A stretch of 64,000 nt of DNA from a virus. Taxonomy: Duplodnaviria > Caudoviricetes. Each line of letters starts with the position of its first letter. The first letter of the stretch is position 1. The stretch lies in IMG/VR virus record IMGVR_UViG_3300028591_000084. One strand, given 5' to 3'. A program made the translations under genes and the position numbers. The notes under the pieces are model-generated. The model made no database searches. It saw nothing but the letters and a program-made list of their open reading frames with translations, and was not told where the DNA came from. Below are positions 2,054 to 26,281 of this stretch, piece after piece.

Positions 2054-5000
2054 ATGAAAGTAATAAAACGAAACGGTGAACTAGAAAAGTTCAGTATCAG
2101 AAAAATGACTACGGCCGTTGCTAAGGCTTATAAGGCCTGTAAAACGACATTCACTAGGGAAACTCAGAAGGAGCTGAAGATAGAATTCTCTGAGGCAGTT
2201 GAGGGAGTTGAAATTATCAGTGTTGATGAGATCCATGATTTTGTAGAGAACTTTCTCATGAAGAATAATCCCGATGTGGCAAAAGCGTATATCATTCATA
2301 GAGATGATCATACGAGAATAAAAGAATTCGTTAAAGGGAAAATTGATTTTATAAATAAATATAAGAAAACAAAAAATACCGCTGATGCAACTGTTGATGA
2401 TAACAGTAATGTTGGCGGGAAAAACATTGGAATACTTAATGCAGAAATTCACAAAGAAGACAATATAAATGTCTCTAGAGGAATGATAATGCAAAAGTTA
2501 AAAGAGCTTTATCCAGATTTCGATTCAAAGCAATATGTAACTGACCTGGAGTCTAAAATAATCTATAAGCATGATGAAAGCTCGTTTAGTGGTGCTATCG
2601 CTCCTTATACTTATTCAGCAAAAGAGGTAATAACGGTAAAATATAATGAACATATTCTACTATTACCATTCGATGCATTGTGGGACATGGTAGAAGAAGA
2701 GGAAGTTCTTGTAGATAATAAAAATACCGTGTATCAAAAATATCCTGAGAATCTTTATGTATTAGATAAGAACGGATGGACAAATGTAACTCACATTACT
2801 AAAAAATTAAGACATAGAGAGCTTGTAAGAGTTAAAACTTCTTTTGGAGAAGATATTATTGTAACAGATAATCATCCAATGATTATTAGTGAAAATATCG
2901 GCGAAACCGTACCTGCTCAAGATTCCTTAGGAGAAAAACAGTATAAGCTTGGAGACAAAGGAATGTTTGGGGTGTCCAAAAGCACGGTAGTAGACATGTC
3001 ACAATGTAATATTACATCTGAATGTACTGATACTTATTGTTTTAATCAGAATGAACACACAAATTGTTGGTGCAAACGTACAGTTGAGCTTAATTGGGAC
3101 TTAGGGTATTTTGTAGGATTTTTTATAGGAGACGGTAATTATGATAATACCGATGGTCATATACACTTTACTCAAAATGATAGACAAATTCTGCTAAATT
3201 TAAATTCTATAATATTTAAATCGTTAGGAATTGGTGGTAGACTTTATACAAAAAAAGATATTGCAAACTGTTATACGTTAGATATTACTAGTAATTATTT
3301 AAATTGGTTACTAAAAGATTATTTCAAAATCCAGGACAAGGCGTATAATAAAACATTACCATTCAACATCTATGAAACTAATGAAGAATTCGCGAAAGGT
3401 ATACTATGTGGTTTAATAGATTCGGATGGAACAGTTAATGGGTCCCAATTAAGCATTCGACTATCTTCTAGAAGCGCCATACTTCAATGTACCCATTTAT
3501 TGAGACATTTTGGCTATGGCGTCGGAAATACCAAACAATCTTTACCATTTAACTGCAACAAAAAATATAAAATAAATTATTCTTTGTGGGGGGTTAATTG
3601 TTCAGTCAGAAAAGATTCCATTAATCTCGGAAATTCCTATAAATTACAAAATGTACAAACATCAGATTCTTCATTAAAATATAAAATAGATGGAATAACT
3701 AAGATTATTAATGTAGAAAAATTATCAGAAGAAGACAGTTTTGTAAAAAATAATGAATTTATATATGATATAACTACTTCTTCGCACACTTTTGCTTTAA
3801 ATAATATACTTGTGCATAATTGCTGCAGTATTACAATGTATCCATTCTTAACAGATGGAATAAAAAAAGTAGGTGGGCTGTCTGCAAAACCGAAGAACCT
3901 TGATTCTTTTTGCGGGATGTATGTAAATCTGATTTTTGCTACAAGTGCCCAATTCGCAGGCGCCGTGGCCACGTCAGAGCTGCTTCTTTACTTCGATTTC
4001 TTCTCAAGAAAAGAGTGGGGTGAAGATTATTATAAAAAGGCAGACGTAGAAATAACTAATGATCATAGTCTGAGACCTATGACTATTAGAAAAAAGATTC
4101 ATCAGCATTTTCAGCAGATCATATACTCCATCAATCAACCTGCTGCAGCACGAGGACTTCAGAGTGCATTTGTAAATTTTAGCTACTTTGATAAACCATT
4201 CTTCGAAGGAATGTTCGGAGATTTCTACTTTCCAGATGGAACAAAGCCGGTATGGGAAAGTTTCTGCTGGTTACAGAAAGATTTTATGATGTGGTTTAAT
4301 GAAGAGAGAACTAAATGTATGCTCACTTTCCCGGTTGAATCTTTTGCCTTAGTTTACAAAGATGGAGAATTTTTGGATAAAGATAGTGCAGATTTCGTAT
4401 CAGAAGAGTATTCCAGAGGTCACTCATTCTTTACATATATTAGCGACACTGTAGATAGTCTATCTTCTTGTTGTTTTACAAAGGATACTAAGGTACTTTG
4501 GAAATCTTCTACCTTGGGAGTACAGCTATCTACATTTGAAGAGATGTATAAGGAGCCAAGTGAGAAGAGCCTTAGGATCTTTCATAATGGTAGTTGGGTA
4601 TCTGGAAAGCCTATAAAGTTAAAGAATAGGAAAATGTACAAGGTCACCACTGCTAATCGTAAGGAATTTTATATGACTGATAATCATATAAACGTAACTT
4701 ATGATGGAGAGAAAACAACTTCGGAACTTACTACAGATGATTTTTTGATGTTTAACACAGCCCCCTTGCAAGCGGTACCTGAACAGGATGAAAAACTATC
4801 ATACGCCCAGGGATTTGCTGTAGGAGCTTTCTTAAGGGACGGAAGTTTTGGACCTAAGAATGAAAGTGCGCTAGTTGACTTTATTCAGAAATGGACTCTT
4901 TGGTCAGAAGAAGCTTGTGTATCATTAAATCTAGATTGTCTACTGCAATCTTATGAATTTAGAAAGGGAATACTAGATGGATATAGTGCAGGTGAAGATA

Positions 5001-6515
5001 AGTGTTATACTACTTCCGAAAGTCTAAAGAATTGTATGGAGGTTTTAATCACTTCCCTGGGAATTAATACCACTATAGATGAGACGTCTGATAGAGAAGG
5101 ACAAGGATGGTGTATTAATCTGTGTAATGAAAGAGCCGTGGAAGGAGTCTCTCGGTGGAAGAACAATAGCCAATATTTTAAGGTAATTGACATCGAGGAG
5201 GTTGAATACCAAGATGAAGTTTATTGTGTTGAGCGTGACAATTCTAGTGATCCATATTTCACTCTTCCTTCTGGATTAATCACACATAATTGTAGATTGA
5301 AAAATAAAGTACAGACTAAAGAGTTCAATTTCACAAATGGTAATATGGGAGTACAAACAGGAAGTAAGTCTGTTATTACTCTGAATTTAAGCAGAATTGT
5401 TCAGGATTGGGCAAAAAATTTTGAGGATCTTCCTAAACAGTTAGATGGTTCATTCAGTGATTATCTTAATGAAATCCTTGAGAGAGTCTATAAGTATCAT
5501 ATTGCCTACAACGAACTTCTTTGGGATATGTATGATTCTGGACTGTTACCTGTATATAAAGCTGGATTTATAAACCTAGATAAGCAATATTTAACTATTG
5601 GTATTAACGGTCTTAATCAAGCAGCAGAGTTTCTCGGTCTTCAGTGTAATGATAATGAAGATTATAAGCGCTTTTGTCAGTTTATATTTGGTACAATAAA
5701 AGATGCTAATACAAATAAGAACGGAAAGTATTTTGGTCATACAGTTACACTTAATACCGAATGTGTTCCCGCTGAATCTTTAGCTATTAAGAACTACAAC
5801 TGGGATAAAGAAGATGGATTAGAACCAATGTCCATCTAAAACCTCACTTAATTGACTCGAAACTCCCTATGGCTATGGCTATGGGACAACGAGGGGCAAG
5901 CAATAACAATAATGTTATGTGCAGCCTGAGAGACTAAATAGAGAGGGCTTCTGTTGTGAAATAGAAGTATGCAATAGTCCGAACTCTATGGTAATATAGA
6001 GAGTATGATAGAAATATTATACCGCTTACTAATAAAATTAATTAACCTTATTAGTAAGTCTTCTCCCTGTACAACGGGGGAGAGCGTAACAGAATGATTG
6101 GGTTCCAGAAGATACTAATCTTTATGCATCTTATATTTATAAACCAAATGATAAGTCCCTGTCTATTCTTGAAAAGTTAACACTTCACGGAAAAGACTAT
6201 ATTGGGGAGTATCTTGATGGCGGAAGTGCAGCTCATATTAATATCGATCATCACTTTAGCAAGGAACAGTATAACAAGCTACTCCATTTTATTGCTGAAG
6301 TTGGTTGTCAGTATTTCACATTTAATTGTGTGAATTCTGAGTGTGAAGACTGTGGGTATATTAGTAAAGAGCCATTTGATGTTTGCCCGAAGTGTGGTAG
6401 CCATAATATTAATTATTATGATAGAATTATCGGCTATTTGACAAAGATTAAAAACTGGTCAAGCGGGCGACAGATTGAACAAAAGACTCGTGTTTATAGT
6501 AACGATATAGAATAA
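2054..6515 (+). CDS. nrdD: anaerobic (class III) ribonucleotide reductase NrdD; join(2054..5819,6097..6515); two inteins
   Basis: ATP-cone (VIKRNG), YKHD, SSCCRL and TECVPAESL motifs. Splicing restores WDKEDG-Y-WVP in frame (4185 nt). Exon 2 carries CxxC..CxxC and the glycyl-radical RIIGYL. Confidence 0.95.
2609..3820 (+). mobile_element. intein 1 in NrdD (404 aa) with LAGLIDADG homing endonuclease; begins with Thr
   Basis: APY|TYSAKEV...VTDNHP...YDITTSSHTFALNNILVHN|CCSITMYP; motifs LGYFVGFFIGDG and ILCGLIDSDG. Confidence 0.9.
4472..5290 (+). mobile_element. intein 2 in NrdD (273 aa) with degenerate endonuclease remnant
   Basis: SLSSC|CFTKDTKV...MTDNH...VYCVE...GLITHN|CRL; eroded AVGAFLRDG and ILDGY motifs. 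Confidence 0.9.
5820..6096 (+). mobile_element. group I intron in nrdD (277 nt, no homing endonuclease ORF)
   Basis: P1 agatggaT/Gtccatct with U.G at the splice site; P10 ccaat/attgg; P7 gagacta/tagtcc; terminal G at 6096; removal restores the frame. Confidence 0.93.
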
Positions 6516-15099: not shown

Positions 15100-15680
15100 T
15101 GGATAATCCGAGATATAAAGGAATTCTTATTGATAGGAATAACGTGCCAATTCCTGGAACTGACTTTTTTGGTTGGAAGTCTAGATCCTTAGCAGTAACG
15201 GTTGTAATTTTAAGTAAAACTAGATCAGGATTGTATGAAGCCCTCGTTGAAAAGCGCGGCCCTGGTTGTCCTGATTACGTAGGATCCTGGTGTTGTCCTT
15301 GTGGTTATTTAGGCTGGGATGAAACACTCAAGGAAGCAGCAGTAAGGGAGGTGTATGAAGAAACTGGTCTAGAGCTCAAAGAAGAGGAGCTATCATTACT
15401 TGGAATTGATGATGATCCAGAAGCGAATAGACAAAACGTTACAGTTAGGTTTTATTGTGAAATAGATGAGAGGAGAATTTTTCCAGTCATTAATCACGCC
15501 TTGTATAAGAAATCAGACAGGGGAGGTGAAGAAGATGAAGTTGACGAATTAACTCTTGTTCCATTATTTTACGTTAGAGTCAACGAGAATAGTTTTGCTT
15601 TTGGCCATAACAAAATTATTGAAGAGGCTTTTTTGAAGATAAAAAATGAAGAAACAATAAAAAAGAAGGTAGGGAATTAA
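15096..15680 (+). CDS. Nudix hydrolase (ADP-ribose pyrophosphatase-like)
   Basis: Nudix box GYLGWDETLKEAAVREVYEETGL and FAFGH; coupled to the PARG gene. Confidence 0.88.
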   Translation: MMDNPRYKGILIDRNNVPIPGTDFFGWKSRSLAVTVVILSKTRSGLYEALVEKRGPGCPDYVGSWCCPCGYLGWDETLKEAAVREVYEETGLELKEEELSLLGIDDDPEANRQNVTVRFYCEIDERRIFPVINHALYKKSDRGGEEDEVDELTLVPLFYVRVNENSFAFGHNKIIEEAFLKIKNEETIKKKVGN

Positions 15681-15700
15681 TCCTTACCTTTATTTTTTTT
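15666..15700 (+). terminator. terminator hairpin, identical to 27071-27105
   Basis: aaggtaggga-attaa-tccttacctt followed by a T-run. Confidence 0.75.
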
Positions 15701-15710
15701 TATTTAGAGT

Positions 15711-15743
15711 AAAAAAAGAGACTACTTAATCTAGTAATCTCTT
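15711..15743 (-). terminator. intrinsic terminator just after the orphan intron
   Basis: Reverse complement aagagattact-agatta-agtagtctctttttt. Confidence 0.65.
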
Positions 15744-15752
15744 GGCATGTTT

Positions 15753-16019
15753 CAGGTTATGTTATCTCGAAGGCTTTTTATCCCCCGAATCAGGCAGTTC
15801 TCATTTCCCGCCTGCTCAGCATACATATTCATCCACTAGGGATGGCGGACACTCTTGGGTAGATTATATTCTTTATTCCTAAAGTTTCACTACCTATGCG
15901 TTACGATACTAGACCATATTACAAACCTAGTTATCTCGGTATTAGCAAATTTCACAGCCTCCACCGATATTGCCCGCTGGTTATCTTAAGTATTGCTACC
16001 TAAGACGGCAAACCAAATT
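15753..16019 (-). ncRNA. stand-alone group I intron/ribozyme (IA-like, variant P7) in a 3' UTR
   Basis: P1 ggT|aa..ttGcc; P2 with GCAA loop; P3 gcgggca/tgtccgc; P4 tcggt/accga; P7 acgcata/tatgct; P8 catcc/ggatg; P9 hairpins; terminal G at 15753 (alternative 15746). Confidence 0.8.
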
Positions 16020-16024
16020 ACCTA

Positions 16025-16924
16025 CTACTCATAAATATATTTCCCCTCCAGTAAGTTATATAGGTCAATATAATCAATCATACAATTATGAGCAGCATCC
16101 TTATCTCTACTACTAAGTCCCCATCTGCCAGAATGAGTCCCTATGTAAACCAAATCATCAAGGTTTTTCCAATCACTAATCGCCCCAGATACAGTTCTCT
16201 CCTTAGGAATTCCTTCTCGCATCTGTTTCATAACGACACAAGCTTGTCTTGGAATTCTGAGATATGTGGTTACTGAGTGTGCAATATACTCAAGTGCTGC
16301 CTCTGAACTTTCCCTATTTCCAAACGAAGGGATCAGCTCAGGTGCAGGCATAATCACATAAATTTTCTGTGGAGCAAAAGAAGCGAGCTTGTCCCAGACA
16401 TCGAATCGTGGTTTCAGATCAAATACGGCTCTAGGCATTATGTCTGGCTTTCCATTACTTTCCCAAGATTCATAAAGACAATCAAGGACGTCACAAATAA
16501 TAGCTCTTTTAACCTTTCTTTCTTCTTGTTCTGCTGGTGTTTCTTCTTTTTTCCAGGGTGCAGATTTTTCACTAGCAGGTTTCCAACCACTTGAAGATGA
16601 TCCACTTCCCCAGCCACTGAATCCTCCAGCAGGACTCCAAGGTTTCCTATCCTCTGCTTTTTCCCAAGGAGCCTTACTTGATCCGGTCCCTGATCCGGTC
16701 CCTGATGATCCCCAGCTAAACGGGTTAGGAGTAGTTTCTGCCATTTCTTTTTTTACTAAATTTTCTTGTTGTTCCATGAGGTTGTAAAGCTTAACTTCCT
16801 CTTCATCAACCTCCTCGTCAATTAAATAATCGTCATCATCATCGTCTTCCGTTGGATGCCCCGTATAATCAGGCGGAAGATATGATTTTCTTTCACAATC
16901 ACTATTATCCATTTGTTGATTCAA
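16025..16924 (-). CDS. HAD/PNK-3'-phosphatase-like domain (degenerate) with a disordered acidic, W/G/S-rich N-terminus
   Basis: ICDVLDCL and YIGTHSGR..SSRDKDAA align with HAD motifs I and IV; 12-bp tandem repeat (GTGS)2 near 16680-16705. Confidence 0.5.
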   Translation of the reverse strand: MNQQMDNSDCERKSYLPPDYTGHPTEDDDDDDYLIDEEVDEEEVKLYNLMEQQENLVKKEMAETTPNPFSWGSSGTGSGTGSSKAPWEKAEDRKPWSPAGGFSGWGSGSSSSGWKPASEKSAPWKKEETPAEQEERKVKRAIICDVLDCLYESWESNGKPDIMPRAVFDLKPRFDVWDKLASFAPQKIYVIMPAPELIPSFGNRESSEAALEYIAHSVTTYLRIPRQACVVMKQMREGIPKERTVSGAISDWKNLDDLVYIGTHSGRWGLSSRDKDAAHNCMIDYIDLYNLLEGKYIYE

Positions 16925-19083: not shown

Positions 19084-20199
19084 ATGGAACTATTTTATGG
19101 ATTAGATGACATCACATTGATACCTTCGGCAACGAATAGTGGATATGTAGATGTAGATTTTTATGTTCAGGATACGAAGGACCAGACAGGAGCAAATCCA
19201 AACTCTCTTCCTATCTTTACATCACCTATGGAGTCGATTGTTGATGAAAAAGCAGCTAAAAGTTTTGTTGATGCTGGAATAAAACCAATCTTGCCGGTTG
19301 GTATTTCTATTGAAACAAGACTTACTTACTGTCAGTGGATATTTTCTGCTTTCACGGTTAATGAGATTCAAAGATATTTTATTAATCAGGATAGAAGAAA
19401 CACTAACAGCCAGTTTCATCTTTGTATTGATCATGGGAACGGTCATGATTCTAACCTATTAACTCTCTGTTTAAATTTAAAAAAGAGATACGGGAATCAG
19501 GTTATTATTATGGCAGGAAATGTAGCTTGCCCCGAGATTTATACAGAATACTCAAGGGCAGGGATAGATTACATGAGAGTTGGCATTGCATCGGGATCCC
19601 TAGACGACATGAGTAGGTTTGGGTTTAACTATCCAATGGCATCACTTCTAGATTCGTTCAAAAAATTCAAGAAAACGTCAGGAGTAGGCCTAACTAATCA
19701 AGTCAAGATTATTGCTGATGGTGGTATTAACTCTTATTCAAAAATCTTAAAAGCTATAGCACTTGGAGCGGACTATGTTATGATTGGTAAAGATTTTGCC
19801 AGAGTATTAGAAGCGGCTGGTGAAATTTATCAGAAAAATAATACTAAAATCAGAGATGCTTCTAATCTTTTAGCCATAGATCCAGCCACAATCAAAGACT
19901 TTAATCGAGATAAGGCTAAGATTAATGGTTATAGTAGATTTTATAGAAATAACACAGACCTAGAAACAAGAGCTAGACAGGCAGGATATCCAAGTGTTGA
20001 AGCTTATTTGAAAGATGATAGACCTGGCAATAAAATAGATAATATTGTTAAAATCTGGGTTAATATTGATATGACCCTGGAAGAATGGGTCGATGATTTT
20101 AAGAAAGTAGCTTATCACGGATTCCTAATGACAGGAAGTACTGGATGGAAAGAATTTAAAAAGAACGCAAGGTATGGTGTATCCATTTCCAACCTCTGA
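19084..20199 (+). CDS. IMPDH/GMP-reductase-family TIM barrel lacking the catalytic Cys
   Basis: LDDITLIP, PIFTSPM, MAGNV, RVGIASGSL, IIADGGI and ALGADYVMIG motifs. Confidence 0.8.
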   Translation: MELFYGLDDITLIPSATNSGYVDVDFYVQDTKDQTGANPNSLPIFTSPMESIVDEKAAKSFVDAGIKPILPVGISIETRLTYCQWIFSAFTVNEIQRYFINQDRRNTNSQFHLCIDHGNGHDSNLLTLCLNLKKRYGNQVIIMAGNVACPEIYTEYSRAGIDYMRVGIASGSLDDMSRFGFNYPMASLLDSFKKFKKTSGVGLTNQVKIIADGGINSYSKILKAIALGADYVMIGKDFARVLEAAGEIYQKNNTKIRDASNLLAIDPATIKDFNRDKAKINGYSRFYRNNTDLETRARQAGYPSVEAYLKDDRPGNKIDNIVKIWVNIDMTLEEWVDDFKKVAYHGFLMTGSTGWKEFKKNARYGVSISNL

Positions 20200-20563
20200 C
20201 GACTTTACGGATTATTGGTTACTAAAAGAACATCCCTCTTCTTGGGCTGGATTGATGATTAATGCACCAATAGGCCTCGAGATTCAAGAGATCAAAAGAT
20301 TAATCTGGAGAGTTTGTTTTGAGGATCTTATACCACCAGTAATAGGAACAAATAAATATATTTCGTTAAAAGAATTTTCATTTTTATACGAATTATACAA
20401 AAATGATAATCTAAAATCTGGAATTATTAACCCTCCCCAAAAGGTAATAAAATCTGTTCCAATAACTATCTTTTATTGGGACGGATCAGAGGATATAAAC
20501 ATGTTTGATATCCATTTAGTAGAATATACAAGATGGATCGCGGAACAAGAGGTATTAAGATGA
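20174..20563 (+). CDS. hypothetical protein
   Basis: 129-aa coupled ORF. Confidence 0.55.
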   Translation: MVYPFPTSDDFTDYWLLKEHPSSWAGLMINAPIGLEIQEIKRLIWRVCFEDLIPPVIGTNKYISLKEFSFLYELYKNDNLKSGIINPPQKVIKSVPITIFYWDGSEDINMFDIHLVEYTRWIAEQEVLR

Positions 20564-21003
20564 AAGACTATAATTTTTATTTTAAAAAGTTTTATTTTAA
20601 AAGCAATACTGAGATCCTTTTAACAGAATGTGCCTATCAAATTTATATATTAACAAAGGATAGTTCAATAACAAAAGAAAAGTTAGTAGAAGCATTTTTA
20701 AAAATGAAATATCTCTTTGTTAAAGGAGGTAAACATGCTTCTAGATCAATTCTTTTAAAGGAAATCAGCAACGATAAGCTATTACACTATAATTATGGTA
20801 TAGAGGATGCAGTGTTCTTTGCGGGAAATCACCTATTTAGAAGTATTGATGAGCAACATTTATCCCGTCTGTTGAGTATAGATAGGGGTATAATAATTAA
20901 TAAGGGTATGATAATATCAAAAGCCGTCAAAATTTGGGAGAATGATAAAATTGATGTAATTGAATATCCAACTGGTAGGACAGCCCTTTTAATAATAAGA
21001 TGA
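20560..21003 (+). CDS. paralog family P2, copy 1
   Basis: ILTKD..ITKEKL...GKHASRS...KIWE. Confidence 0.6.
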   Translation: MKDYNFYFKKFYFKSNTEILLTECAYQIYILTKDSSITKEKLVEAFLKMKYLFVKGGKHASRSILLKEISNDKLLHYNYGIEDAVFFAGNHLFRSIDEQHLSRLLSIDRGIIINKGMIISKAVKIWENDKIDVIEYPTGRTALLIIR

Positions 21004-21410
21004 TAAACTCTGATTTTATTATTAAAAAGATTTATTTCGAAAAATACCCAGGATTTTCCAAAATCCCCAACATATTTATCTTATCTAAAGAAGGTTTAAT
21101 AACTAAAGAAAAGATAGTTAGTGCTATAGTAAATGAGAATCTTCTTATAACTAGTGATGGTAAATATGCCTCACGCTCTTTCTTAGAAGACACTATATTT
21201 AGTCTAGAAGCTATAATATTATTTGATTTATGTGTCTTCTCTGATTATGATGAGATGTGTTTAAACTATATTCTTAATCTAGGAAAATATAATGACATGA
21301 GTGTGAGTATAGAAGACGTTATTATAAAATCTGTAGAGAAACTTTGGGAAGATAATAGCGTTAGAGCCGTTAAGGCAAAAAAGAACCAAATCCTATTAGT
21401 GATAAAATGA
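21000..21410 (+). CDS. paralog family P2, copy 2
   Basis: ILSKE..ITKEKI...GKYASRS...KLWE. Confidence 0.6.
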   Translation: MINSDFIIKKIYFEKYPGFSKIPNIFILSKEGLITKEKIVSAIVNENLLITSDGKYASRSFLEDTIFSLEAIILFDLCVFSDYDEMCLNYILNLGKYNDMSVSIEDVIIKSVEKLWEDNSVRAVKAKKNQILLVIK

Positions 21411-21820
21411 TCGACGAATCTCCACTTGTTATTAAGGAAATTTGTTTCGCGTGGGATACAGAAATAGTCGATCCAAGATTCCTGTTTGCCTTAACTAGGG
21501 AGAATCTAATGACGAAAGAAAGATTATTTAACTTCCTAGTGAAAGAGCGTGTTCTAACTGTTCGTGGAAAAAAATTTGCTTCTTATACAATACTAAATAA
21601 GGACCTTTGGATAAAAGATGTAACATATTCTCCATCATATATTAAAATGCTTAACATCGAAGAGACACAGTTAAAATATCTTCTTAATATCAATAATGTG
21701 TCTTTAATAAATACCGAAAATAGAGAGGATATTTTTGTGAAAGCAGCAGAAAAAATATGGAATGAGGGAATCGAAATTATCAAATGTTATGAACAAGCAG
21801 TCTTAGTAGTAATTAAATGA
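21407..21820 (+). CDS. paralog family P2, copy 3
   Basis: ALTRE..MTKERL...GKKFAS...KIWN. Confidence 0.6.
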   Translation: MIDESPLVIKEICFAWDTEIVDPRFLFALTRENLMTKERLFNFLVKERVLTVRGKKFASYTILNKDLWIKDVTYSPSYIKMLNIEETQLKYLLNINNVSLINTENREDIFVKAAEKIWNEGIEIIKCYEQAVLVVIK

Positions 21821-22191
21821 TACAAGAAGGAAAGTATTTATTAGCATTTGTACCAATGATTGTTAAGCCCTATATTATTTTGAAATCTTCAGGTGATATG
21901 GAAAGGGATGCAAAGAGATTACTGAATTATATAAACAGAAATCTAGATATATATGAAGATCGGATCCTCGCAATGTTTCAAGACCAAAAAAAGGGATTTA
22001 CTAGAGAAGAAATATCCCTAATTGGTGGAAAACGGGGAGAAGACGATTGGAAGAAAAGAGCTATTGGTTTCTTTAATGTTGATTTGAAAAAAACTGATAA
22101 AGGATTTGAAGGTATTATAACAAAAGATGATATATATCTTTTTAGCGTCGAAGGTACTGATGCTGACTTTGTATTACTAGAAGAGGACTAA
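21817..22191 (+). CDS. hypothetical protein
   Basis: 124-aa ORF followed by a terminator. Confidence 0.55.
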   Translation: MIQEGKYLLAFVPMIVKPYIILKSSGDMERDAKRLLNYINRNLDIYEDRILAMFQDQKKGFTREEISLIGGKRGEDDWKKRAIGFFNVDLKKTDKGFEGIITKDDIYLFSVEGTDADFVLLEED

Positions 22192-22251
22192 GATCCTCTT
22201 TTTTCTTTTTTACTCACCTAATAACCTTACTATTAGTATAAAATTAATAAA

Positions 22252-24934
22252 ATGAACATGAAAGAAATTAATTCTGTAAAAACAAATGAAGAAGTGATTG
22301 AGTTTCTTCCATTTCCAGAATGTGTTAGGCGTCGAGTAGGTGTTTATCTTGGCGGCAATGATCAAGAGGCTGTTAATACGGCTTTTAGAGAGATTGTCGA
22401 TAATGCCTCAGATGAAATAGCAGCTGGATATGGAGATACAATTTTATTAAGTACAAATTTTAATGGATTTTGTTTTGTAGCAGATAATGGTAGAGGTATT
22501 CCAATCTCAATGAGCAGAGATGTTCCTGAGAAGACGAGTGCTTATCTATCAATATCAGAACTACACACAGGATCAAAATTTACCAGTACCCAAGGAGTAG
22601 CAAGAGTTGGTCTTAATGGCTTAGGATCCTCAGCTACTTCTGCCTGTTCAACGGTCTATTGCTTATTGTCCAGGATAACTGAGGATAATTATAATAGATC
22701 TATTCCTGATGTAAAAACTGTTTGGGAAAAGGCAGGACCACGTTCTAAGAGAGATCTATATTATATTGTCATTATGGAGAAGGGATATAGAACGTATGAA
22801 AGTGCTGGTTCACTTAGAGATATTGAGAAGCTCTTGTTTGGAAAGGATAAAGAATATAAGATTCCCTCCGGCATGAGTACTCTGGTATTCTTTAAACCTG
22901 ATCCTGAAATTTTTGAGTCTATTAATCCCGCCATTCCTGTTAAGAATCTCCAATATTTTATGTTAATCCAGGAGAAATTCTTTAAGAGGAAAGTTAATGT
23001 TGTAATTGATGGCGTTAATATTAAAAATGATTTCAAGCCTTATCGATTTGAGGTAACAAAGATCATAACACCAAAGGACACAAGTATGAACAAAGAAGTT
23101 GGTATTTATATGTCCTTTGAGGCTGATCCTGAATTGAAAACTAAAGAAGTTACTGGATCAGTTAATGGTTTGGATTGTACAGGCCATCATCTTAGTATAG
23201 CAGAGTCAATTTATAAGGCGGCACTTAAAGATCAGTTCAAGATTAAACATTCTTATCTTGAACCTGGTATGAAATTAAATGTCATAATTCTGGCTAATGA
23301 GACGATCTTTGACTCTCAGAATAAAAGTAGAGTTAAGAGTATAGCCAAAGTCAAATCTACAGACTTCACTGAGGTAGTAAAGGATGTTGAGAAGATTTTT
23401 AGAAAATACTCTGACTATTGGGAGACTCACGTTCAGAAGTTACAATATCTGGCAGATTCTATGAGAAATATCGGTGCTATTGAAAAGGCACAGAAAATCA
23501 TAGATAGTGCCGGAGGTAATGGTATGTATCGAACAAAAGGAGATATGATAGCTGGTTTTGCTGATGCTACTGCTCCTGCAAATGATAGATGGGCTTGTGA
23601 GTGCTTTATTACTGAGGGGCTTAGTCCTTGCGGCTCTTTGAAGGCTGCTAGAAAAGCTATAGATGTAAAATATAGATGTTGTGTTCCTTTACGTGGAAAA
23701 GTGCTTGATACAAGTGATAGTACTGTCGATAAGATGATGGAAAATAAGGAATTCTTTACGATCTTTTCTCTTATGGGACTAGGTATATCAGCAAATAACG
23801 TTATCAAAGACGCTAAAGATCCGGAAGAGGCATACGAAATAATTAAAAAGAAGTCACGTTATGGCAAATTAATTATAGCTACAGATAAAACGAAAGTTTG
23901 TGTCTGAGGGTGTAGAGATACACCTAAGGAATCCTATTGTTGCGAGGAACTCTGGTTAGGTCTTAGGTACTAAAGAGTTGTAGTTAACTCTTAGTAACAA
24001 TCTTAAGAATACAGACAATTCGCTTTGTTATAAGATTAGTCTATTAATTCTATAACAAGACAACGACTATCCCTCTATGGGAGTAAGACAGCAAGTCAAT
24101 AATGGCTGTTTGAAAGATAGGATACCCAAACGTTTAAGGCGTGGGTAAAAATATAGTCTGATCTGTATGGAGACATGCAGGAGTTCATAAGAGAACCGGG
24201 AAGTAGTGACGACACTTCTTGAACAAAATGGCCGATGAAGATGGGTGGCAACAGGTTGCCCAGGGATATAGAAATATATTTCGTAATATTGCATTAAAAG
24301 CGGGGAACTCCTGTTAGGCATAAGGTACCAAAGTGTAACAACCCTTATGATAGGGACAATCCGCAGTAGAAATACTTCAACGACTATCTCAGTGATGAGA
24401 GTAGGGTGGCAAGTCTGTATAATGGCCATTCGAAAGATGCAATATCTGACCACGTAATGGTGAAGATAAAAATATAGTCTGAGCACATGGGAAACTATGT
24501 GGAGAAGAAATTCTCGTACTAAGTGTAGACGACTTAGTGTAAACAAAACTGTATCAATTCAGAAAGGTATATTATATACTATTTTGAAGTTTGCTAGATT
24601 TATGATAGATTTTGGTTTGGTTTATATTGCCGAATCTCCAATATTTGAACAAGGAGGTAAGTATTTCTATCCTAGTGATCCTAGAATACCTGGCAGTCAA
24701 TTCTGTGTAGGAATGGATCCTAATAAGAAATTTAGACGTTTTAAAGGCCTTGGTGCTCTTGAACAAGAAGATGTATATTATTCGTTCTACAATGAGCAAA
24801 CAAGACGTCTAATAAGAGTAACTCCAGAGTATGCTGATTATGCCATGGGCTTAGTAGAGGACATAAATAAAAGAAAGAAGTTACTGTTTGATAAAGACAT
24901 ATTAACTAATCCATATAATTTCACAGATCTTTAA
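22252..24934 (+). CDS. gyrB: type II topoisomerase large subunit (GyrB/ParE; T4 gp39+gp60-like); join(22252..23886,24231..24246,24552..24934)
   Basis: EIVDNASDE, DNGRGIP, GLNGLG, ITEGLS and PLRGK motifs; splicing gives IIATD-ADEDG-L-SIQ and RFKGLG in one 2034-nt frame. Confidence 0.9.
23887..24230 (+). mobile_element. group I intron 1 in the topoisomerase gene (344 nt, no ORF)
   Basis: P1 cagaT/Gtctg; P7 caacgacta/atatagtctg; P3 atcctat/ataggat; ends gaacaaaatG. Confidence 0.88.
24247..24551 (+). mobile_element. group I intron 2 in the topoisomerase gene (305 nt, no ORF)
   Basis: P1 tgggT/Gccca; P4 gcggg/tccgc; P3 attgcat/atgcaat; P7 caacgacta/atatagtctg; ends aaacaaaactG. Confidence 0.88.
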
Positions 24935-24940
24935 TTAATT

Positions 24941-26281
24941 ATGCCAAAGAAAAAACCAATTGTAGAAAATTTAACAAAATCTGTTGGAGAAATAACTGAA
25001 CAAGCTTATGTTTTGTATGGTGGATATGTGGCTAATAGTAGAGCCCTCCCCAGCATACAAGATGGTCTCAAGGTGTCAATAAGGCGCTTAATTTATGGGG
25101 CAATGCAATATAAAAAAGGTGAGTGGGTCGGAGGAGATTTGTTAACTAAGACGATGCAGAAATGGCATCCACACTCAGTTGATCAAATGCACTCCTCTGC
25201 TGCTCACTTAGTTAGAGATGGTATATTTTCTGGTCATGGATTTTTTGGCTACACCTCTATTGATGGTGTGGAATCTCCCCCAGCTGCAGGTCGTTATCTT
25301 AAAATGAGACTTAGTGATCTTTACTGGGATGTGTTAGGAGAAACAACGAAGGAACCTTTTGCTCCTTTCTGTGAATCTCCCCAAGGACCAGAAGAACCAA
25401 AGTATTTCAATGTACCAATACCTATTTGTCTCTATCAAAAGATTCAGACTATGGGTTTGGCAGTAGGTTGTAGAACAAATATTCCGTCCTTCTCACCCAA
25501 ATCAATCTTAATGGCAATGAAGAATGACGACCCTAGCTTATTAGAGTGTTCAGTAGATCTTATTATCGACAAAGAAAACTCTGAGCTTGATCGTATTTGG
25601 AGAACAGGAAGAGGAACTCTCTGTTTAGCCTATAAGATTTCAAGGATGAAAAGTGAGGATGGAAAATCTGAAGGTATCTTATTTGAAAGTGCAGATAGAT
25701 GTAGTACTGATATCTTCACACCAAAGATCTCAAAGTTCCAGAAGCTTGTTGATGATGGAAAGGTTTATATTGAAGACTTGACTGATGAAAATGGTCCAAA
25801 GCTTTTCGTCGGAAGAGTTCCTGGTGCTAGAGGGATAGCGATAGAGGACATAGAGTCAATTGCTAGAAAAATTTGTTATTCAAAGATTGAGTATCAGATT
25901 TGGGTAACTGATGGAATGAGGGCTTTTAGAATTCCTATTAAAGATTGGGTTGTAGGAACTTATGACAACTATATTAATACCTTAGTGAAAGTCAATAATT
26001 CTAAATTGGAAAAGGCTAAGTTTGATCTAGCTGTTCAAGAGGCTCTCCCTGTTATATCTTCTTATATTATGAATGTTAACCCCAAAGCTAGTGATTCTGA
26101 AATTCAAAAGGAGACTGGCCTAGGGTTAGATATCATAGAAGCAGTAATGTCTAAACCGATATCACAATTAAGAAAAAATAAAGATAATTCAGATAGAATT
26201 AAAGCAATTAAAGAACGGATTAAAGAATTGAAAAAATTTGATCCAATTGTTTATACTGACAACTTAATTAACAGCTTATGA
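24941..26281 (+). CDS. gyrA: type II topoisomerase medium subunit (GyrA/ParC; T4 gp52-like)
   Basis: RALPSIQDGLK, WHPHS, G.GFFG and catalytic PAAGRY; no C-terminal pinwheel domain. Confidence 0.88.
   Translation: MPKKKPIVENLTKSVGEITEQAYVLYGGYVANSRALPSIQDGLKVSIRRLIYGAMQYKKGEWVGGDLLTKTMQKWHPHSVDQMHSSAAHLVRDGIFSGHGFFGYTSIDGVESPPAAGRYLKMRLSDLYWDVLGETTKEPFAPFCESPQGPEEPKYFNVPIPICLYQKIQTMGLAVGCRTNIPSFSPKSILMAMKNDDPSLLECSVDLIIDKENSELDRIWRTGRGTLCLAYKISRMKSEDGKSEGILFESADRCSTDIFTPKISKFQKLVDDGKVYIEDLTDENGPKLFVGRVPGARGIAIEDIESIARKICYSKIEYQIWVTDGMRAFRIPIKDWVVGTYDNYINTLVKVNNSKLEKAKFDLAVQEALPVISSYIMNVNPKASDSEIQKETGLGLDIIEAVMSKPISQLRKNKDNSDRIKAIKERIKELKKFDPIVYTDNLINSL

Follow-up and report, generated by a model that had tools for sequence, protein, structure and literature searches.

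The 64,000-nucleotide (nt) stretch of DNA analysed here (the window), from the Caudoviricetes record IMGVR_UViG_3300028591_000084, carries at positions 22252-24934 a gene for the large subunit of a type II topoisomerase (GyrB/ParE-like), inside which lie two group I introns that contain no open reading frame (ORF). The introns are separated by an exon of 16 nt encoding ADEDG, the part of the TOPRIM DxDxDG metal-binding motif that holds its second and third Asp. In metatranscriptomic contigs both introns are removed and the 16-nt exon is kept, restoring an enzyme of 677 residues. The features of the locus are as follows.

22252..23886, + strand: exon 1 of the GyrB/ParE-like large subunit, 545 codons ending in ..IIATD; Pfam HATPase_c and a partial Toprim match
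23887..24230, + strand: intron 1, 344 nt, ORF-less group I intron of IA type (RF00028, fold, covarying helices); terminal G at 24230
24231..24246, + strand: micro-exon GCCGATGAAGATGGGT, 16 nt, A-D-E-D-G plus the first base of a Leu codon; found in RNA contigs between exons 1 and 3
24247..24551, + strand: intron 2, 305 nt, ORF-less group I intron (RF00028, fold), a paralogue of intron 1 (about 71% identity); terminal G at 24551
24552..24934, + strand: exon 3, in which TA completes the Leu codon, followed by SIQKGILY... and a stop at 24932-24934; Pfam DNA_gyraseB_C and alignment
24941..26281, + strand: GyrA/ParC-like subunit gene, directly after the topoisomerase gene; Pfam DNA_topoisoIV (PF00521), E 1.2e-20

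The hallmarks of a type IIA topoisomerase B subunit are all present: the gene encodes a GHKL ATPase domain, a TOPRIM domain containing DxDxDG and a C-terminal domain, and the gene for an A subunit lies next to it. The best matches in the PDB are ParE and GyrB (E 5.6e-37), and the uninterrupted homologue P0003, 78% identical, scores 35.5 bits for Toprim against a cutoff of 23.1. As called from DNA, the ORF (22252..23907) runs through ..IIATD into the intron-derived residues KTKVCV and a stop at 23905-23907, and the database protein for the gene is a fragment of 551 residues (P0001). The first-pass annotation of this DNA, made from the letters alone, had described the stop after IIATD and predicted that gene callers would miss the spliced gene. 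It also placed the exon encoding ADEDG at 24231-24246 and derived a frame of 2034 nt from double splicing, which is borne out: joining 22252-23886, 24231-24246 and 24552-24934 in silico yields 2034 nt, or 677 codons plus a stop. The spliced product (..IIATDADEDGLSIQKG..) aligns without gaps to the uninterrupted homologues P0002, P0003 and P0005 at 71-79% identity, and two uninterrupted homologues read exactly ..ATDADEDGLSIQKG.. at this point. A predicted junction-spanning peptide covers the stretch IIATDADEDGLSIQK. In silico, early stops arise if the micro-exon is omitted or if one intron alone is removed: skipping of the micro-exon shifts the frame to a stop at codon 556, while removal of intron 1 with retention of intron 2 leaves a frame that continues 28 codons into intron 2. 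The arrangement is not a twintron, in which no exon sequence stands between the introns in mRNA, as the 16 nt are kept in RNA and are required for the frame.

Both introns are matched by RF00028, intron 1 at 23879-24180 with 46.6 bits (E 1.7e-10 in a 1-kb search, 1.1e-8 over the whole window) and intron 2 at 24237-24501 with 39.9 bits (E 1.8e-8 and 1.1e-6, respectively), and these are the only two matches in the window. Folds computed for each intron together with six exon bases at each end have z-scores of -4.5 (intron 1) and -3.95 (intron 2) against dinucleotide shuffles. In the minimum free energy folds, the P1 of intron 1 pairs exon CAGAU (23882-23886) with the guide GUCUG (23902-23906), and that of intron 2 pairs micro-exon UGGGU (24242-24246) with the guide GCCCA (24258-24262), each placing a U.G pair at the splice site. 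The in-frame stop at 23905-23907 overlaps the guide of intron 1, and the P7 of this intron lies at 24065-24070 / 24153-24158. At the 3' splice sites stand G 24230 and G 24551, with junctions that are unambiguous in RNA contigs, and both introns share the 3' end AACAAAA(C)UG. Sequence and folds thus agree with the first-pass annotation on the U.G pair at both 5' sites and the G at both 3' ends.

Further support comes from an alignment of seven members of the intron family, drawn from the window and from L001, L003, L006, L009 and L010. P7 (GACUAU/AUAGUC) is invariant in all seven, and compensatory changes occur in P3, P4, P7.1, P7.2, P8 and P9; the rows for P2, P5, P5a, P5b, P6 and inner P8 were left out, their registers being mislocated or unreliable. 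In intron 1, P7.1 and P7.2 are UCCC/GGGA and GACAGC/GCUGUU, with equivalents in intron 2 and compensatory changes in both hairpins. As these hairpins lie between the 5' strand of P7 and the 3' strand of P3, the introns are of the phage-typical IA type. P1 covaries with the exon as well, with ACA-GAU and guide GUCUG in the window and L006, and ACG-GAU and guide GUCCG in L003 and L010, so that the guide change tracks a synonymous change of the Thr codon from ACA to ACG.

Neither window intron wholly contains an ORF of 40 or more residues on the + strand. A minus-strand ORF of 159 residues across the introns matches no Pfam family, and homologues of the endonucleases found in relatives' introns are absent from the window. 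Neither intron thus encodes a homing endonuclease, and orthologous introns carry HNH_3 (L006) or TnsA-like (L092) enzymes. From RF00028, the folds and the covariation, both introns are predicted to be intact, self-splicing group I ribozymes, as the first-pass annotation had recognised in describing two complete ORF-less introns, and their splicing would proceed without a protein factor.

Splicing was followed in three RNA runs recorded as metatranscriptomic (X2 and X3, both from sheep gut, and X8) and in the probable source DNA run X1, compared over positions 22200-25100. X2 and X3 represent the same sample and X8 another study; assembled contigs rather than raw reads were used, with a joint reporting threshold of 1%. 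The DNA run gives a single colinear contig at a flat depth of 38, with no joint at either intron. In X2, the exon contigs reach depths of 77 and 69, and those of introns 1 and 2 reach 17.8 and 15.6. An X2 record ending at 23886 continues with GCCGATGAAGATGGGTTATCAATTCAGAAA, the micro-exon followed by exon 3, and in an X3 record that begins at 24552 the letters before this point are TTATAGCTACAGATGCCGATGAAGATGGGT, which correspond to the end of exon 1 plus the micro-exon. The predicted junctions ACAGAT/GCCGAT and GATGGGT/TATCAA are therefore both present. In a further X3 record, 14 nt from exon 1 lead into the micro-exon and then into intron 2 as far as 24472; this is an intermediate from which intron 1 has been removed and in which intron 2 remains. 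Together, both junctions and this intermediate document precise exon ligation in metatranscriptome contigs. Another X2 record covers 23857-24246 (the end of exon 1, intron 1 and the micro-exon) and then continues with 14 letters that do not fit intron 2. Since 16 and 14 make 30 under a 31-mer assembly, the simplest reading is that these letters are the first 14 nt of exon 3, which would make the record the reverse intermediate, with intron 2 out and intron 1 in.

Two other contigs stand apart from this evidence. In X8, a contig connects 23886 with 24552 through exactly the 16 nt; it was rejected as proof of splicing, as it carries single-nucleotide polymorphisms (SNPs), has no intron cover and possibly represents an intron-less relative. 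A contig in X2 with a depth of 38.7 links 24328 and 24469 through unknown letters; it probably represents a related intron that belongs to another phage and has core segments in common.

The joined contigs could also be ascribed to contaminating DNA from intron-less variants of the same phage, in which case the window introns may not splice. RNA libraries can hold DNA, uninterrupted alleles occur in the relatives P0002, P0003, P0005 and L004, and the X8 contig would fit such a source. However, the exon and intron pieces listed for X2 and X3 contain no letters differing from the window (the same strain), and at least three coexisting forms (unspliced, intron 1 out only, fully spliced) would demand several otherwise identical alleles. 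Moreover, the introns reach about 0.23 of the exon depth in RNA and the same depth as the exons in the DNA run, and both introns keep intact cores, P1 and the terminal G. Contamination is therefore a very improbable source of the joined forms. Still closer to negligible is the possibility that the gene is truly split, its pieces being translated separately and then assembled, as are gp39 and gp60 of phage T4. An ATG at 24497 does open a frame of 145 residues continuous with exon 3, and T4 provides an example of a tolerated split at this motif (bioRxiv 10.1101/2022.08.31.505936). Yet both pieces would lack ADEDG, and thus the second and third Asp of the motif; the ATG sits inside the P9 hairpin of intron 2, MobA-type extension tails are absent, and joined RNA exists. 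In the metatranscriptomes, then, both introns are removed in vivo, the 16-nt exon is kept and the 677-residue enzyme is restored.

The first-pass annotation had further argued that the 16 nt must play two parts, as 3' exon for intron 1 and as P1 strand for intron 2, implying ordered splicing, and that skipping of the exon could act as an on/off switch. On this account, one intron must release the micro-exon first, and skipping would provide control of the topoisomerase. There are observations to recommend it. Skipping would indeed frameshift the gene, with a stop at codon 556, and as the paralogous introns have a common 3' end, AACAAAA(C)UG, one core might use the terminal G of the other. In addition, the 28 codons that can be read into intron 2 after removal of intron 1 could disfavour that order. 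As a precedent, Landthaler and Shub reportedly described in 1999 tandem group I introns with exon skipping in orf142 of phage Twort (cited in PMC11878797). An obligatory order, however, is not supported by the double role. The micro-exon would be divided: intron 2 takes its last five bases (nt 12-16) as P1 substrate, whereas a P10 with intron 1 could involve at most nt 1-2 (2 bp, G.U and C-G), and the eleven bases between would be free. As the two introns act at opposite ends of the micro-exon, there is no structural reason for an obligatory order, and the RNA intermediates agree, that with intron 1 out being seen directly and the opposite one inferred. No exon-skipped joint (23886 to 24552 with nothing between) is listed in the three RNA runs and the DNA run, even at the 1% reporting threshold. 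Hot-spot crowding, together with presence and absence of the first intron in near-identical genomes (both described below), also explains the arrangement. The proposed switch is not supported beyond the frameshift that skipping would cause; ordered splicing with regulation is, on balance, quite improbable.

The two splicing reactions are instead most likely independent, so that either order would be possible. Translation may nevertheless introduce a kinetic asymmetry. With intron 1 present, ribosomes would be halted by the stop at 23905-23907 within the guide of this intron, so that intron 2 stays out of their reach. After its removal, ribosomes reading 28 codons into intron 2 could disturb the folding of that intron, and for this reason splicing of intron 2 first, or of both simultaneously, may be the more productive path.

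The position of the two introns is shared by others. Homologues of the window protein number 1310, mostly on gut metagenome contigs of up to 420 kb. When the best 120 representatives were sorted by their stop point relative to the motif, 66 were uninterrupted, at least 18 stopped after the first Asp (xTD), 13 after the second Asp, eight after the third and two just after the Gly. Group I introns were confirmed in DNA at five positions within a 17-nt span of the DxDxDG-coding stretch, as follows (a slash marks the insertion point).

After GAT/GCN (first Asp): L003, L006, L010, L093; group I intron, DNA-confirmed
After the second GAT: L009, and a compact intron of about 180 nt in L013-L018 (contigs of 199-375 kb); group I intron, DNA-confirmed
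After the third GAT: L001/L007; group I intron, DNA-confirmed
After the Gly codon: L089, L090; group I intron, DNA-confirmed
After the Gly codon plus 1 nt: intron 2 of the window; group I intron, DNA-confirmed

The window protein is only about 48% identical to the L013-L018 loci. The same topoisomerase gene also harbours inteins (PF14890) near residue 450 in many relatives (P0013, P0038, P0055 and others) and further introns near residues 120 and 618 (KGL/G) in various relatives; the relatives with such elements include the loci L012, L006, L009, L013 and L020, and the gene is heavily colonised overall.

Comparison with these relatives suggests where the window introns came from. At the same site, L006 has an intron that matches intron 1 at 96.6% identity, against just 72-77% for the flanking exon 1. 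The L006 intron contains in its P6 an ORF for an HNH endonuclease of 392 residues (HNH_3, E 5e-17). Because of this excess of intron over exon identity and the HNH ORF of the L006 copy, intron 1 is taken to be a copy, lacking the endonuclease, of a mobile intron that was transferred recently. The single intron of L001/L007 shares 80% identity with intron 2, and the exons share 63%. The L001 intron lies 4 nt upstream of the intron 2 site, at GAGGAU/GGA with guide GUCCU, and intron 2 of the window lies at GGGU/UA with guide GCCCA. Intron 2 thus appears to have the same core as the L001 intron, two guide changes having moved it to a new site. The insertion history of both introns is proposed from these identities.

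A micro-exon in the same motif is also found in a second lineage, where the arrangement is independent of that in the window. In locus L092, from a contig of 301,585 bp, whose protein is 56% identical to that of the window, exon 1 ends in ..ACGGAT and is followed by an intron of 1337 nt, a 15-nt exon AGCGATGAAGATGGT, an intron of 259 nt and exon 3; splicing in silico opens a frame of 670 residues. The first intron carries an ORF for a TnsA-like endonuclease of 320 residues (4284-5246), and the second is from a different family than the window introns. The layout of intron, 15-nt exon and intron recurs in nine contigs (L092 and L095-L102), the eight further ones each coming from a different sample. 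In four of these eight, the first intron has shrunk to 633 nt with an ORF remnant of 89 residues. Decay of the endonuclease can therefore be observed inside one lineage, at the same site and beside the same 15-nt exon, by comparing L092:4284-5246 (320 residues) with L099:3890-4159 (89 residues).

Near-identical genomes reveal how such an exon comes about. L089 and L090, which have the same architecture and gene neighbourhood, contain the second intron without the first, and between L089 and L092 exon 1 is 99.8% and the second intron 99.6% identical. The micro-exon therefore arises by invasion, when an intron with an endonuclease enters a gene in which another intron already lies 15 nt downstream. 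A pattern search for two intron cores of the window type 195-225 nt apart found none in viral contigs, the second lineage escaping this pattern because its second intron belongs to another family; in metagenome contigs it returned three loci, all in non-topoisomerase contexts. Elsewhere, L087:147-1370 holds three strong group I matches (79.8, 64.2 and 79.9 bits) within 1.3 kb of an apparent tape-measure-like phage gene, of which the second and third are at most 80 nt apart and may enclose another very short exon.

Taken together, the topoisomerase gene of the window very probably contains two independent phage self-splicing group I introns of IA type, 16 nt apart and both removed, with the micro-exon as a by-product of hot-spot crowding. 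In the proposed mechanism, each ribozyme would select its 5' splice site by means of a P1 of 5 bp that contains a U.G wobble, and each intron would end in its own G. Intron 1 would be a recently transferred derivative of an HNH-endonuclease intron that lost the endonuclease, and intron 2 would be related to the intron that other phages carry 4 nt upstream, with a new target owing to two changes of the guide. The micro-exon would then reflect mobile introns crowding one conserved target rather than a designed regulator. Several points weigh against this reading. Both RF00028 scores (46.6 and 39.9 bits) lie under the Rfam gathering score of 50, because of which a default scan at the gathering threshold finds no intron and the matches appear only with E-value thresholds. 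The P10 pairings are weak for both introns. The RNA support comes from assembled contigs, which cannot exclude a minor exon-skipped product, and RNA libraries may contain DNA. The reverse intermediate (intron 2 out, intron 1 in) is inferred only from 14 letters at one contig end, and the X8 junction contig, with its SNPs and without intron cover, may stem from an intron-less relative.

Several known systems share parts of this arrangement. In the Staphylococcus phage Twort, orf142 is said to have three group I introns, according to the work of Landthaler and Shub from 1999. In both cases a single phage protein gene holds several closely spaced self-splicing group I introns, and related introns stand in tandem. 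In the window, the gene encodes a topoisomerase, the catalytic residues are encoded by an exon of 16 nt (15 nt in the second lineage), and no skipping is seen. The td, nrdB and nrdD introns of T4 belong to subgroup IA2, with P7.1/P7.2 and an in-frame stop just inside the intron; they lie in codons for catalytic residues, occur in variants with and without an endonuclease ORF and number one per gene. These genes are not known to have a tandem pair or a micro-exon. The window introns resemble them in P7.1/P7.2, the early in-frame stop and insertion at conserved catalytic codons, and differ in that those introns are single in each gene.

In placozoan mitochondrial cox1, a micro-exon of a single base lies between two group IB introns, was proved by two overlapping, partly spliced transcripts and restores a conserved catalytic residue (PMC5436844). 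In both systems, a second group I intron landing beside a first creates a micro-exon, with overlapping intermediates as evidence. The placozoan case, however, is organellar, of type IB, 1 nt in length and fixed across a phylum, while that of the window is in a phage, of IA type and 16 nt in length, and among near-identical phages the micro-exon layout is polymorphic for presence and absence. The Jug (jumbo gut) phages, whose genomes span 360-402 kb, have many group I introns, inteins and homing endonucleases in essential genes, supported by metatranscriptome junction reads; in the consulted sections of that paper, the intron-containing genes are terL, nrdD and the DNA polymerase gene, and topoisomerase IV appears only as a conserved core gene (PMC12880540). 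They resemble the elements discussed here in being gut jumbo phages (the window contig has 312 kb), and L013-L018 carry their compact intron in the same motif. The same sections describe no micro-exon, motif hot spot or topoisomerase intron (PMC12880540), and the window phage is from sheep gut.

The closest parallel in position is gene 60 of T4. Its 50-nt gap, which ribosomes bypass in translation, follows the Gly codon of ..TDADHDG, which is the intron point of L089/L092 and lies 1 nt upstream of intron 2 in the window. The origin of the T4 gene 39/mobA/gene 60 cassette has been stressed as unexplained (bioRxiv 10.1101/2022.08.31.505936). The two systems share the gene family, the motif and an HNH homing endonuclease, but T4 uses ribosome hopping and a split protein, and the window would use repair at the RNA level by two ribozymes. 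A bypass or MobA split of T4 type is not found in the window, which has no mobA homologue and no take-off/landing codon pair, and whose interruption is removed from RNA. A shared 10-mer, TATAGAAATA, occurs in the T4 gap (L091:2803-2852), in the P2 region of intron 2 (window 24266-24275) and in the L001 intron, at a similar distance from the motif. Homology of the T4 gap to the 5' end of an intron was tested and set aside as no more than a lead, as local alignment is not above dinucleotide shuffles (p 0.11-0.15).

A more speculative view, which is rather unlikely, holds that the crowding is not neutral. With an intron already in place at the Gly codon, the homing target would be altered and invaders would meet competition, an idea akin to the T4 bypass cassette, which protects against MobA, and the tandem pair would couple translation, splicing order and occasional skipping into control of the topoisomerase. 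In its radical version, the T4 gene 60 gap would itself be an intron relic.

A literature search of incomplete coverage turned up neither a group I intron in a phage topoisomerase gene nor a phage micro-exon. Intron-rich jumbo phages of the gut have already been published; what appears to be new is the micro-exon, along with the hot spot and the fact that the latter coincides with the bypass site of T4 gene 60. For annotation, the consequence is that gene callers split an essential enzyme into pieces of 551 and about 127 residues, losing two catalytic aspartates, and do likewise in at least nine other contigs. For ribozyme function, an exon of 15-16 nt suffices for one ribozyme to use as its 3' exon and for the next to use as its P1 substrate, and RNA from a natural community shows this working. 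The five positions in 17 nt make up a natural and compact archive of the competition between mobile elements for a single conserved target, in which endonuclease-bearing, decayed and ORF-less intron forms are all represented, along with retargeting by guide changes, and near-identical genomes exist with and without the first intron. As the T4 gene 60 bypass element is at the same point, these phages therefore offer a comparative frame for the puzzle of the gap position.

The element that hosts the gene is a jumbo phage of the sheep gut (rumen type) of about 312 kb. The contig of the window has 311,995 bp, and its DNA is present in gut metagenomes of sheep and goats. With a GC content of about 34%, the window is AT-rich, and phage-like ORFs fill it densely. 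A megablast comparison with known phages gave as its sole match a 50-nt intron core in Pseudomonas phages, with no close cultured relative. A single-protein scan of viral contigs returned zero relatives, and an alignment-based scan found them. Within the window, RF00028 has no match at 15600-16200, even at E up to 1. Immediately upstream of the topoisomerase gene, at 20174-22191, five ORFs of 124-156 residues stand in a row, and at least three of them (20533-21820) look like tandem paralogues with common ..TKEK..ASRS/ASYT.. blocks. In the uninterrupted relative L004 (1799-2929), and also in L005, the gene just upstream of the topoisomerase gene has a weak match to RVT_1 (reverse transcriptase).

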